From positions 1 to 64,000 of the IMG/VR virus record IMGVR_UViG_3300017700_000931: a stretch of DNA of 64,000 nt; one strand, 5' to 3'. This document shows positions 26,787-60,383 of this stretch, one piece after another. Under the pieces are notes generated by a model, which saw nothing but the letters and a program-made list of their open reading frames with translations, ran no database searches and was not told the DNA's origin. This DNA is from a virus. Lineage: Duplodnaviria; Caudoviricetes. Every line of letters starts with the position of its first letter. Positions within the stretch are counted from its first letter, which is position 1. The translations under genes were made by a program, and so were the position numbers.

Positions 26787-26875
26787 TGGAAAGGGTTAGA
26801 TTCGAACTAACGACACAATGGGTTTCACGCCATTTGCTCTACCAAGATACCGAAGTATCACTGAGCTACCTTGCC
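26787..26875 (-). tRNA. tRNA-Phe-like variant with D-loop hairpin and 8-nt anticodon loop
   Basis: GAUAC UUCG GUAUC in D loop; AAUGG CGUGAAAC CCAUU. Confidence 0.65.
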
Positions 26876-27172: not shown

Positions 27173-27202
27173 CAAAATTACTAAAATTTTTGCAATTGGC
27201 AA
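27173..27202 (-). promoter_or_regulatory. Bacteroidota-type promoter of ncRNA operon
   Basis: TTGC ... TAATTTTG. Confidence 0.7.
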
Positions 27203-30583: not shown

Positions 30584-30653
30584 TTGAGCCAACGAGAATC
30601 AAACTCGTGTCCCCACCCGTCTAGGTGGTGTTCTCTCACTAAACTATAGCCCA
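30584..30653 (-). pseudogene. tRNA-Ala-like body, 6-nt loop
   Basis: G3-U70; CCACC UAGACG GGUGG. Confidence 0.6.
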
Positions 30654-31183: not shown

Positions 31184-31267
31184 CGGTCTAGGAGGGATTC
31201 GAACCCACGTACATCCTTTCGGATTCCAGATTGAAAGTCTGGTGGCCTAGACCGCTAGCCGACGGCA
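31184..31267 (-). tRNA. tRNA-Glu(UUC) variant with rearranged acceptor and long variable arm
   Basis: CCAGA CU-UUC-AA UCUGG; 3' CCUAGACCGC pairs with GCGGUCUAGG in D region. Confidence 0.65.
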
Positions 31268-31540: not shown

Positions 31541-31554
31541 GAAATGTCATAAAC

Positions 31555-31587
31555 AAAAAAAGCTCGACCAAATTTGGTCGAGCTTTT
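31555..31587 (-). terminator. attenuator terminator, operon 2
   Basis: AGCUCGACCA/UGGUCGAGCU plus U tract. Confidence 0.9.
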
Positions 31588-31615
31588 ATCAGTGTTTTGT
31601 TTAAATACTTAAACG

Positions 31616-31705
31616 TTAACTTATGACAATACTTGACCACCCTAGGCGACAATCCGCCTCGGCTGCTTCAAAAGCAAAATCAAATATGTTGTTAACTGTT
31701 TTCAT
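31616..31705 (-). CDS. attenuator leader peptide 2 (F/D/A/E sensor)
   Basis: MKTVNNIFDFAFEAAEADCRLGWSSIVIS. Confidence 0.85.
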   Translation of the reverse strand: MKTVNNIFDFAFEAAEADCRLGWSSIVIS

Positions 31706-31750
31706 TGTATTATAAATATATTGTTTTTTATCAAAATCTTAATTACACTG

Positions 31751-31780
31751 CAAATATACGAAAGAATTTTTAATTAGCAA
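31751..31780 (-). promoter_or_regulatory. Bacteroidota-type promoter, operon 2
   Basis: TTGC ... TATATTTG. Confidence 0.8.
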
Positions 31781-32298: not shown

Positions 32299-32303
32299 AT
32301 TTG

Positions 32304-32389
32304 TAGCGGGAGGTGGATTCGAACCACCGCAAGCCTTCTTAGGGTCTCTAGGTTATGAGCCTAGCGAGTTACCACTTCTCCATCCCGCA
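32304..32389 (-). tRNA. tRNA(CAU), initiator-like, long variable arm
   Basis: 1:72 mismatch; CUAGG CU-CAU-AA CCUAG; 19-nt variable region. Confidence 0.7.
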
Positions 32390-33416: not shown

Positions 33417-33430
33417 ATTTTATTTTGGTC

Positions 33431-33464
33431 AAAAAAAAAGCTCGAACTTTTTGAGTTCGAGCTT
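33431..33464 (-). terminator. attenuator terminator, operon 3
   Basis: AGCUCGAACU/AGUUCGAGCU plus U tract. Confidence 0.9.
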
Positions 33465-33488
33465 GAATATCTTTGGTATTAATCTTTA

Positions 33489-33581
33489 TTAACTTCCAAT
33501 CACATAGACATAGCTCGAACACTCTAACACCAATAGGCATAAGACTGAGTTAAGGAGCACTATGTTTACAAAATTGTTCAT
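33489..33581 (-). CDS. attenuator leader peptide 3 (V/L/C sensor)
   Basis: MNNFVNIVLLNSVLCLLVLECSSYVYVIGS. Confidence 0.85.
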   Translation of the reverse strand: MNNFVNIVLLNSVLCLLVLECSSYVYVIGS

Positions 33582-33615
33582 TGAAGATTTCTACGTTTTA
33601 TTATTAAATATATCA

Positions 33616-33645
33616 CAAAGATACTAATGTTATTTGAATTAGCAA
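33616..33645 (-). promoter_or_regulatory. Bacteroidota-type promoter, operon 3
   Basis: TTGC ... TATCTTTG. Confidence 0.8.
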
Positions 33646-55692: not shown

Positions 55693-55772
55693 TGGTACAG
55701 ATGATAGGATTCGAACCTACATTGCGCTCCGTTACAGCTTCTAGTTTCGAAGACTAGGCTGGCTACATCTGT
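55693..55772 (-). tRNA. tRNA-Arg(UCG), D-armless, encoded CCA
   Basis: 8-nt connector; CUAGU CU-UCG-AA ACUAG; 20-nt variable region. Confidence 0.7.
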
Positions 55773-56080: not shown

Positions 56081-56118
56081 ATTATCATTAATAATAAATA
56101 CTCTATAAAAATCAAGAG

Positions 56119-56190
56119 TAGCGATATACAGAATCGAACTGTAATTTCAAGGATATGAGCCGAGTGTAATAACCACTATACGATATCGCC
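56119..56190 (-). tRNA. tRNA-Met(CAU), elongator-type
   Basis: loop CU-CAU-AU; imperfect stem. Confidence 0.75.
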
Positions 56191-56463: not shown

Positions 56464-56544
56464 ATGTAAAATGGAGCTGAGATATTGGATTAATCGGTTT
56501 AATCCTACACCCACTTATTCAAAATATTCGTGGACTCCATTTTG

Positions 56545-56618
56545 TGGGCCTTGTTGGATTCGAACCAACCACCTACTGATTATGAGTCAGTTGCTCTAAC
56601 CGAATGAGCTAAAGGCCC
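56545..56618 (-). tRNA. tRNA(CAU), Ile2-type
   Basis: GGGCCUU body; ACUGA CU-CAU-AA UCAGU; resembles lysidine tRNA-Ile2. Confidence 0.75.
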
Positions 56619-58032: not shown

Positions 58033-58065
58033 TATTGAATCTACATTTAGATTCACATTTTGTTG

Positions 58066-58137
58066 GGTGTAAGGACGGTACCGACCCGTCTTCTCTAGGT
58101 TCACAGCCTAGCACTTCACCTTAAAGCTTCAAACACC
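58066..58137 (-). tRNA. tRNA-His(GUG), atypical T loop
   Basis: CUAGG CU-GUG-AA CCUAG; G-1:C73. Confidence 0.78.
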
Positions 58138-58327: not shown

Positions 58328-58356
58328 AAAAAAAGCTCGACCTTGTGAGTCGAGCT
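58328..58356 (-). terminator. attenuator terminator, operon 4
   Basis: AGCUCGAC/GUCGAGCU plus U tract. Confidence 0.9.
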
Positions 58357-58384
58357 AAATCCTTATTACCTATATCTTGTTACA

Positions 58385-58477
58385 TTATGATACTTTGGTT
58401 ATGGACATACCCGACTCGGTTGAAGAATTACGTCTCCAATTACTAATCGAAATCATATGTATGTGCATTGTCATCAT
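58385..58477 (-). CDS. attenuator leader peptide 4 (M/H/I/S/N/W/R sensor)
   Basis: MMTMHIHMISISNWRRNSSTESGMSITKVS. Confidence 0.85.
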   Translation of the reverse strand: MMTMHIHMISISNWRRNSSTESGMSITKVS

Positions 58478-58514
58478 TTTGTAAAAATTGTTTTGTTTAT
58501 TATTAAATATATCA

Positions 58515-58544
58515 CAAAGATACTAATGTTATTTGAATTAGCAA
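58515..58544 (-). promoter_or_regulatory. Bacteroidota-type promoter, operon 4
   Basis: TTGC ... TATCTTTG; within 53 bp identical to operon 3 promoter. Confidence 0.8.
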
Positions 58545-58557
58545 TGATTTTTGTGAA

Positions 58558-59175
58558 TTATTTTTTCTTTTTTTTAGTTTTCCTTGATTTTACTGGTGTT
58601 TTGACAGATGCGGCGATAGAATCTTTTTTTGTCATTTCAACATAATTGAATGGTTTTTCCACTCCTCCGCTAAAATGTGCTGCCGCAGATAATGCAATTT
58701 CTAACTTTTCGTATGGCTTCATTTTAACATTTTGAAGAGCATACATGGCACCATCTGCTATTTCTTCACCACACCCAACTGATATAAAATTATCTTTAGT
58801 CATTGCTACTTGATAATCTTCATCAATCATATAAAGTTCACCTTTATATCCGACTAAGAAGGTCCCACCTTTATCATCACCATCTTTAAATCTTTGACTA
58901 TACCCACCTTTTCTAAAACACTCCTTGACTGAGTCAATAAATGTTGTTATCATGAAATCAAAATCAGATTGACCTTTCTTTTGTTTTGGTGCTTTATAAT
59001 GTGAAGACATTAATAATTGTCCCATCCTAAAACTTGATGTAAAACCCATTATAAATGGTCCTGTTTTGAAAACCTTAGTATCTCGTCTAATATGGATAGA
59101 TAATCCGCCAACACCAGCACTATCACCACCAATTATAACTTTATCCTGTTGAATTAATCCTACTATACATGTCAT
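58558..59175 (-). CDS. HslV-like Ntn protease
   Basis: MTCIVG...GGDS, SVGCG..IADGAM. Confidence 0.75.
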   Translation of the reverse strand: MTCIVGLIQQDKVIIGGDSAGVGGLSIHIRRDTKVFKTGPFIMGFTSSFRMGQLLMSSHYKAPKQKKGQSDFDFMITTFIDSVKECFRKGGYSQRFKDGDDKGGTFLVGYKGELYMIDEDYQVAMTKDNFISVGCGEEIADGAMYALQNVKMKPYEKLEIALSAAAHFSGGVEKPFNYVEMTKKDSIAASVKTPVKSRKTKKKKK

Positions 59176-59225: not shown

Positions 59226-60383
59226 TTATTTGAGTAATTCTTTGAAATTATCAATTTCCTTAGCATTTATGAATCGACCCATCGCTGGGCCATCTTCTAT
59301 TCCAGCATCAGTAGCATCTTTACCAGTAACACTTAAATTAAACTCTAAAAATGCTGCTAACATATTATCATCAAAAGAAATTAGCTTACCAAATTTCTTA
59401 ATTGAATCAGAATTAACGCCGGAACGCACTTGAAGCTTTTTATAGCCAACAATTGAATTAATTGCAAAATCCTTCAATGAAATTAAAAATGTAATAGCTT
59501 TGACTTCATTAGCTGAATATGTCAATTTGTTTAAATCTTTAGCCAATTGTGTTGGGTCATTATTTACTAATAACCAAGCAATTAATATGGCTGGGTCTCT
59601 TTCTTCAATAAAATCTTTGTTAACATCCAACCCAGTGAAAATCCAATCAAACAAATTGTATTTATTAATCAATTGTAAAAAATGAATTACCGATTTACTA
59701 GTTTTTAATCCCTTCAAGAATTCATCTCTGATTCTTTCTGGAGAAATATCTTTAAGACTTGCATCCTTTTGTAATGCTTTATCAACCGCTGGGTCTAATT
59801 CGGAACCAAACCTTCCCGCAAATCTAATTGCTCTCAGAATTCTAAGTCTATCTTCACCAAATCTATCTTCAGCAGAACCAACTGTTTTGACAACACCATT
59901 TTTTAAATCATCAATACCACCAACAAGGTCAACGACTTCGCCAGTATCGATATCATAAAATAATGCGTTAATTGTAAGGTCACGTCTTTTTACATCTGTT
60001 TCAATATTGGTGAATTCAACCTCATCCGGTCTTCTACCTGAACCAATATCTTTTCTGAATGTCGCTATTTCATATTCACCTGAATCGGAAAATACATTAA
60101 TAACACCAAATTGTTTTCCAGTTGGGAGTGTTTTGAGTCCAGCTTCTTTCATCATGGATTCAACCTTGTCTGGAACTGCATCAGTAGCTAAGTCCCAATC
60201 TTTTGGTATTTTACCAAGTAACGCATCTCTAACAGCACCACCAACCACAAATAATTTGTGCCCATTAGCAACAAATATGTTTTTTATTGCAATAATGTCT
60301 TGTGGAACCGGAATGTTCATTTTTACTCGACTTTCCATAATAAGACTTCTGATTTTATTTTTAATAAATTCTTTCACTTGCAA
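59226..60383 (-). CDS. cca: CCA tRNA nucleotidyltransferase
   Basis: VGGAVRD, DWDLAT, RRDLTINAL, EDRLRILRAIRF; start uncertain. Confidence 0.92.
   Translation of the reverse strand: MQVKEFIKNKIRSLIMESRVKMNIPVPQDIIAIKNIFVANGHKLFVVGGAVRDALLGKIPKDWDLATDAVPDKVESMMKEAGLKTLPTGKQFGVINVFSDSGEYEIATFRKDIGSGRRPDEVEFTNIETDVKRRDLTINALFYDIDTGEVVDLVGGIDDLKNGVVKTVGSAEDRFGEDRLRILRAIRFAGRFGSELDPAVDKALQKDASLKDISPERIRDEFLKGLKTSKSVIHFLQLINKYNLFDWIFTGLDVNKDFIEERDPAILIAWLLVNNDPTQLAKDLNKLTYSANEVKAITFLISLKDFAINSIVGYKKLQVRSGVNSDSIKKFGKLISFDDNMLAAFLEFNLSVTGKDATDAGIEDGPAMGRFINAKEIDNFKELLK

Follow-up and report, generated by a model that had tools for sequence, protein, structure and literature searches.

Cassette 4, a short leader ahead of a block of about 20 phage tRNA genes, is very probably a ribosome-mediated (leader-peptide) transcription attenuator of the trp/his type that controls the tRNA operon behind it, to judge from its sequence and predicted RNA folds. 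This reading, proposed in a preliminary description of the same DNA, is supported by a promoter, a short open reading frame (ORF), a block of regulatory codons lying over region 1 of the RNA, a covarying antiterminator, an intrinsic terminator and the lack of any other recognisable promoter. The anatomy of the cassette, the statistics of its codon run, its conservation and the covariation of its pairing segments are matters of direct observation.

The window analysed here covers positions 1–64,000 of a virus record of 362,532 bp, with nearly all of its genes on the minus strand. ARAGORN finds 57 tRNA genes in the whole genome, 53 of them in the window, and the translation-related genes of the window include a class-I Glu/Gln tRNA synthetase and a CCA-adding enzyme. 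The GC content is 33%, a Shine–Dalgarno-like motif precedes 9 of 177 long ORFs only, leaving about 95% of the phage genes without one, and the phage promoters fit the Bacteroidetes consensus TTG-N19–21-TAnnTTTG. These promoter and initiation signals suggest that the record is probably a huge phage with a Bacteroidota host.

Anatomy and alternative folds of the leader

All features of cassette 4 lie on the minus strand and are given here in the direction of transcription. Starting from the 5′ end, the promoter (58544–58515) is of Bacteroidetes type, with TTG and TATCTTTG (a TAnnTTTG −7 box) separated by 19 nt, and is part of a conserved 45-nt box common to the tRNA and stable-RNA units of this phage. 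The leader ORF (58477–58385), which has 30 codons followed by TAA and encodes MMTMHIHMISISNWRRNSSTESGMSITKVS, begins with an ATG 37 nt past the −7 box. The intervening untranslated stretch is A-rich and has no Shine–Dalgarno sequence, a start context that is usual for the genes of this phage. The leader peptide has no family in Pfam or PHROGs.

Codons 4–19 of the leader (58468–58421) form the regulatory block MHIHMISISNWRRNSS, an uninterrupted series of 16 codons for Met, His, Ile, Ser, Asn, Trp or Arg (ATG CAC ATA CAT ATG ATT TCG ATT AGT AAT TGG AGA CGT AAT TCT TCA). The preliminary description had singled out this series, including its AUA, AGA, CGU, AGU and UGG codons, and a fresh reading of the sequence confirms it. 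Among the 1677 ATG-initiated ORFs of 20–45 codons found in six frames across the whole genome, no other has so long a run of in-set codons, the next longest after these 16 being 11. With an in-set residue frequency of 0.369, a run of 16 has a probability of 1.1 × 10⁻⁶ per ORF, or 0.002 expected occurrences genome-wide.

The RNA of the leader contains four pairing segments. Region 1 (ACAUAC ... UCGAUU, 58464–58445) lies within the codon block and pairs with region 2 in ribosome-free RNA. A small conserved hairpin (UUGGAGA-loop-UCUUCAA, 58439–58420) covers the Trp, Arg, Asn and Ser codons, and over the Trp/Arg codons it may provide a pause site for RNA polymerase. Region 2 (GAGUCGGGUAUGU, 58417–58404) has two alternative partners, either region 1 or, as antiterminator, the 5′ arm of the terminator. 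The intrinsic terminator itself (58356–58327) consists of a GC-rich 9-bp stem, AGCUCGACU/GGUCGAGCU (58356–58334), with a CACAA loop and seven U (−13.3 kcal/mol), and is set off from the leader ORF by a 28-nt spacer before the stem; its 5′ and 3′ arms are regions 3 and 4. The 9-bp pairing previously described between GAGUCGGGU (58417–58409) and GCUCGACUC (58355–58347) is correct, two of the pairs being G–U, and the duplex has a predicted energy of −15.5 kcal/mol, as against −5.6 ± 2.0 kcal/mol for shuffled sequences.

In the minimum-free-energy fold of the full free RNA, cassette 4 and all of its homologues form the 1:2 helix together with the terminator. A second round of folding for cassette 4 and the homologues imposed the footprint of a ribosome, 30 nt long, on the RNA. 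With the ribosome at the stop codon or absent, the predicted structure is again 1:2 plus terminator; with the ribosome on the His codon before the 3′ arm has been transcribed, region 2 pairs with region 3 instead, in cassette 4 and in the homologues alike. The same architecture recurs in all four leaders of the window, described in the next section: a long interrupted helix joins the codon block to a segment approximately 60–73 nt into the ORF and is followed by the terminator, and when the 3′ arm of the terminator is withheld, region 2 switches to the 5′ arm. Every sequence-level element of an attenuator is thereby present: the ORF, the codon run, the terminator, the 2:3 antiterminator and a 1:2 anti-antiterminator placed over the regulatory codons.

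Searched against all Rfam families, the leader RNA has no match; the best-scoring family, Trp_leader, reaches 17.7 bits (E = 0.62), its cut-off being 41. A T-box riboswitch was considered separately and rejected, as there is no Rfam T-box match at the gathering threshold or at E values up to 10, and neither a specifier loop nor a T-box sequence.

From this arrangement we infer that the leader is translated, that ribosomes stall on it and in which direction and to what extent the operon responds. Transcription would start at the promoter, and a ribosome would translate the 30-codon leader as RNA polymerase advances. If charged Met, His, Ile, Ser, Asn, Trp and Arg tRNAs are plentiful, the ribosome would pass through codons 4–19, region 2 would be either covered by it or captured by region 1, and the terminator would form, ending transcription ahead of the genes downstream, a 59-amino-acid ORF and the tRNAs. 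If any codon of the block is read slowly, the ribosome would stall on region 1, leaving region 2 to pair with the 5′ arm of the terminator; no terminator would then form, and polymerase would read through into the 59-amino-acid ORF and the tRNA genes. The new tRNAs would relieve the stall, a demand-driven negative feedback on tRNA supply and, because the product is the limiting tRNA itself, on decoding capacity. The effective sensor is probably codons 4–16 rather than the full block, because a ribosome stalled on the final Asn-Ser-Ser codons would cover region 2 and favour termination; this narrower stretch, deduced from spacing, still includes all seven amino acids.

The tRNA operon and three sister cassettes

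The first gene past the terminator, located between it and the first tRNA, is a conserved ORF of 59 amino acids (58308–58129, minus strand) that was missing from the preliminary description of cassette 4. It directly follows the terminator at every locus of cassette 4 type. The protein has no Pfam or PHROG family. Its predicted model (pLDDT 88) has a strand-helix-helix-strand-strand fold, for which the PDB holds no match better than E = 0.87. A homologue with 44% identity is encoded in the uncultured 634-kb phage LR745206.1, with no leader, terminator or tRNAs nearby.

The regulated block of about 20 tRNA genes (58136–54932, minus strand) runs His, Trp, Ser ×4, His, Asn ×3, Arg ×5–6, Ile ×2 and CAU-anticodon ×2, with the anticodons UGA ×2, GGA and GCU for Ser, GCG, CCU, ACG and UCU ×2 for Arg, GAU ×2 for Ile, and CAU ×2. 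The seven amino acids given for these tRNAs in the preliminary description hold, the count of 22 does not: 20 are detected, comprising 18 ARAGORN calls and two genes (58065–58136, His, and 55696–55772) that ARAGORN misses at its normal threshold and that come up with Rfam or when this threshold is lowered. Block and codon run represent exactly the same amino acids (Trp, Ser, His, Asn, Arg, Ile and Met) and no others. Under standard wobble, the run offers a cognate codon to 11 of the 12 distinct anticodons, the exception being tRNA-Arg(CCU), and conversely the block tRNAs serve all codons of the run except AUA, for which one of the two CAU tRNAs (56118–56190 and 56544–56618) would have to be a lysidine-type tRNA-Ile. 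A consensus scan of the minus strand from 58515 to 53385 found no further TTG-N17–21-TAnnTTTG promoter.

Cassette 4 is one of four cassettes in the window that share the same promoter box and the same layout of a short ORF, a terminator and a tRNA block. Sister cassette 1 (15995–16232, minus strand) has the codon block TYQPKQYTQGGKP ahead of Pro, Gln, Tyr, Thr, Gly and Lys tRNAs; sister cassette 2 (31553–31780, minus strand) has FDFAFEAAEAD ahead of Phe, Glu, Asp and Ala tRNAs, together with one Gln tRNA; and sister cassette 3 (33428–33645, minus strand) has VLLNSVLCLLVLEC ahead of Cys, Val and Leu tRNAs and one tRNA with a CAU anticodon. All four leader ORFs terminate in TAA, and in cassettes 1–3 the tRNAs follow directly after the terminator, with no ORF of the 59-amino-acid type. 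When each leader is scored against each operon, the longest runs on the diagonal of the matrix are 13, 11, 7 and 16 codons, with no off-diagonal run exceeding 4, and the amino-acid sets of the four cassettes together make up all 20. The four paralogous switches would thus jointly monitor all 20 amino acids. Somewhat less firmly than the attenuator reading of cassette 4, we consider it likely that the tRNA genes are under demand-driven autoregulation, with the four leaders splitting the 20 amino acids among them and each opening its own operon only when its codons are slow, so as to top up the limiting subset of tRNAs.

The 45-nt promoter box has six copies in the 362-kb genome, four at the leaders and two at tRNA/RNA units without a leader. 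These two units, under the promoter boxes at 27173–27202 of the window and 70734–70763 of the genome (both minus strand), also lack a terminator. One consists of a tRNA-Phe and an odd 89-nt tRNA-like gene, the other of a structured RNA of approximately 500 nt followed by an initiator-like tRNA-Met (C1 mismatch).

The Leu/Val/Cys operon contains an unusual 87-nt tRNA (32303–32389, minus strand) that has the long variable arm of a Leu-type body and the anticodon CAU. It is conserved in three phage genomes, the other two copies lying at L002:7555–7643 and L104:7917–8002. Such a tRNA might insert Leu at AUG, or at AUA if modified, or it might be an unusual tRNA for Met or Ile.

Conservation in relatives and competing explanations

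Homologous loci were collected by a pattern search and by a search with the 59-amino-acid protein. Their sources are metagenomes (lake, sediment and marine) and one complete phage, G001 (IMGVR_UViG_3300000976_000009, 353 kb), the closest complete relative. Eight distinct homologues of cassette 4 from other metagenomes have the ATG, the frame and the codon block intact, and changes in leader length among homologues are multiples of three. Promoters of the homologues retain TTG-N19/20-TAnnTTTG. The block has the consensus N-I-H-M/I/R-x-S-I/M-x-x-W-R-R-N-S, and 12 of 13 substitutions within it stay inside the set of seven residues, against approximately 46% expected from single-nucleotide neighbours (p = 6 × 10⁻⁴); codon 18 even alternates between the two serine families TCT and AGT. 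Within a 12-nt core, synonymous changes are absent from all homologues. Behind cassette-4-type leaders in four other genomes, 41 of 43 tRNA calls are for His, Trp, Ser, Asn, Ile, Arg or Met.

The peptide is well conserved over its N-terminal two thirds, and the third that follows the block is free in both sequence and length, while its RNA is always complementary to the local 5′ arm of the terminator. A terminator is found in all homologues, 26–34 nt past the stop codon. Five different terminator sequences occur among them, each with a matching region 2 whose position in the ORF does not change. Because MAFFT was unable to align these non-homologous terminators column by column, covariation was assessed by comparing the energies of cognate and non-cognate duplexes between region 2 and the 5′ arm. 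Cognate duplexes range from −9.6 to −16.2 kcal/mol, compared with a mean of −7.5 kcal/mol for non-cognate pairs and −9.35 kcal/mol for the best derangement, and 2 of 720 permutations match the observed cognate mean. Region 2 and the terminator covary likewise in the homologues of cassettes 1–3. On the opposite side of the switch, each of the nine intact leaders can pair the ACAUAC/GUAUGU core of the 1:2 helix, with a single compensatory change among them.

Exceptions occur among the close relatives. In the G001 homologues of cassettes 4 and 1 (L004:1500–1670 and L005:1500–1670), the 5′ half of the ORF, including its ATG and the first half of the codon block, has been lost, and the two share an identical promoter and 5′ untranslated segment fused to mid-leader sequence; both retain a region 2 complementary to an intact terminator. 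We treat these leaders as truncated because in-frame TAA or TAG codons lie directly upstream with no ATG, GTG or TTG, so that an alternative start was rejected. The two look like natural deletion variants of the switch. The loss of the 5′ half also means that the leader ORF is not indispensable in every lineage, and G001 has either released two of the four operons from control by translation or put the RNA to a different use. The leader of the L119 lineage contains Ile, Met and Arg codons, but none of the corresponding tRNAs is found within 5 kb downstream; because of this mismatch, we regard the match between codons and tRNAs as inherited rather than retuned in each genome.

These relatives bear on the best-surviving alternative, that the leader is an RNA-only element that is never translated, either a constitutively leaky terminator that would keep tRNA transcription low and constant or a structure bound by a protein or a tRNA, of the T-box or PyrR/TRAP type. 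The G001 leaders favour it in that they retain region 2, the terminator and the invariant segment TGGAGACGTAAT without a start codon, and a 12-nt core free of synonymous variation fits constraint at the level of RNA. We nonetheless consider it unlikely: 8 of 9 distinct lineages have retained the ATG and the reading frame, with indels in multiples of three, substitutions follow the amino-acid set and not a sequence or a structure, each of the four cassettes has its own codon block matching its own tRNAs, and neither the T-box nor any other Rfam family matches.

Conservation of the N-terminal two thirds would suit a 30-amino-acid functional small protein, an independent micro-gene with its own terminator, the tRNAs then being transcribed from an unrecognised promoter downstream. 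Phage-specific promoters, or promoters for a sigma factor of the phage's own, would escape a consensus scan, and a sigma-70-type gene lies near the homologous locus L119. This explanation, less likely again than the untranslated element, leaves unexplained why each of four peptides reproduces the amino acids of its own downstream tRNAs, why a C-terminal third that is free to vary is complementary to the local terminator arm, and why the distance from stop codon to terminator is fixed at 24–34 nt; the peptide, moreover, has no PHROG family.

A third possibility keeps the attenuator and changes its purpose, so that the 59-amino-acid protein would be the target with the tRNAs as passengers, or the switch would time events in infection and not sense tRNA supply. 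The constant position of the 59-amino-acid ORF behind the terminator and the presence of a homologue without tRNAs in another huge phage speak for it; against it, cassettes 1–3 have no such ORF and lead straight into tRNAs, and the codon block matches the tRNAs and not the composition of the 59-amino-acid protein, which makes this very improbable. Chance would make the leader an accident of AT-rich intergenic DNA, which is full of short ORFs (1677 in the genome, as counted above), one that happened to fall between a promoter and an upstream gene's terminator. This has a negligible probability and is refuted for practical purposes by the run statistics (P of approximately 10⁻⁶), by a pattern seen four times in the window and kept in eight other metagenomic lineages, and by the covariation of the antiterminator.

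Cassette 4 is directly preceded by genes for an HslV-like peptidase (PHROG 1040, 58558–59175) and a CCA-adding enzyme (59226–60383, both minus strand), an order that is syntenic in G001. A search with this neighbouring HslV-like gene returned 21 loci, and G001 is the only syntenic one. Four more distant huge phages that share the gene (G002–G005) have tRNA clusters without any leader; they belong to a different huge-phage lineage with sigma-70-like promoters. The cassette is lineage-specific, as the leaderless tRNA clusters of these four phages indicate. Their tRNAs (loci L036, L041, L046 and L050) are grouped by isoacceptor family and include paired CUA-anticodon (amber suppressor) tRNAs, which suggests recoding of TAG in that lineage. 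The phage collection searched contains no cultured relative, the uncultured 634-kb phage being the only one with matches, and these are weak. The Phe/Glu/Asp/Ala operon of G001 includes an ochre suppressor, a tRNA with a UUA anticodon (L007:2195–2267, ARAGORN); the matching place in the window (31191–31263, minus strand) gives a weak tRNA match of 35 bits.

Relation to known systems and the phage setting

Cassette 4 resembles the trpL, hisL, leuL, pheL, thrL and ilvL leaders in having a short ORF near the promoter that contains consecutive regulatory codons, 1:2, 2:3 and 3:4 pairings that exclude one another, and a terminator ahead of the regulated genes. Several amino acids are sensed at once by the ilvL leader of ilvGMEDA (Leu, Val and Ile) and by thrL (Thr and Ile). 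The breadth seen here is unlike that of ilv and thr, with seven amino acids in a single leader and all 20 over the four paralogues. As opposed to leaders of biosynthetic operons, which regulate enzymes, cassette 4 would regulate tRNAs, the sensed molecules themselves. Its stop codon is downstream of region 2, whereas in biosynthetic leaders it lies between regions 1 and 2. It also differs from those leaders in residing in a phage genome and in matching no Rfam leader family in sequence or structure.

The pheST attenuator of Escherichia coli, with the leader peptide pheM, likewise controls a component of decoding through the speed at which its own codons are read, but it senses a single amino acid, its product is a synthetase and it lies on a bacterial chromosome, in contrast to the seven amino acids, the tRNAs and the phage genome of cassette 4. 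T-box elements also couple the status of tRNA to terminator readthrough upstream of translation-related genes. They do so without a ribosome, by direct contact of uncharged tRNA with a specifier codon and the T-box sequence, both of which are missing from cassette 4. Among hosts with TAnnTTTG promoters and no Shine–Dalgarno sequences, the Bacteroid-trp leader motif in Rfam shows that leader-peptide attenuation is in use; it controls trp biosynthesis genes, and the scan of all Rfam families found no match to it in cassette 4. In function, the nearest analogues of cassette 4 are the pheST attenuator and, among multivalent leaders, ilv and thr. A full-text literature search, conducted mostly outside subscription journals, found no description of leader-peptide attenuation of tRNA genes.

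If the attenuator reading of cassette 4 is true, it would be the first case of leader-peptide attenuation in which the product is the sensed tRNA itself, extending the textbook mechanism to stable RNAs that serve as their own signal, a kind of target new to it. Why phages have tRNA genes, and to what use, has long been asked; the roles proposed are to compensate for codon usage, to replace host tRNAs that have been degraded and to evade anticodon nucleases. The switch would read the speed of decoding and answer with tRNA synthesis, and the tRNAs would therefore be made on demand. A shortage arising from decay of host tRNAs, from anticodon-nuclease defences or from high codon demand of late genes could then trigger it, making the switch a compact reporter of the decoding shortages that the phage meets. 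The design appears modular, with one scaffold and exchangeable codon blocks, and could be reused in synthetic biology as a sensor of tRNA availability.

The window also contains a match to the small bacterial SRP RNA at 24795–24890 (minus strand), which scores 40.9 bits, just over the Rfam cut-off of 40. Three tRNA-like genes on the minus strand (25456–25530, 26787–26875 and 30584–30653) have insertions or abnormal anticodon loops, for which ARAGORN reports two-letter ‘anticodons’, and some of the tRNAs for Thr, Cys, Asn and Ile are 85–89 nt long.
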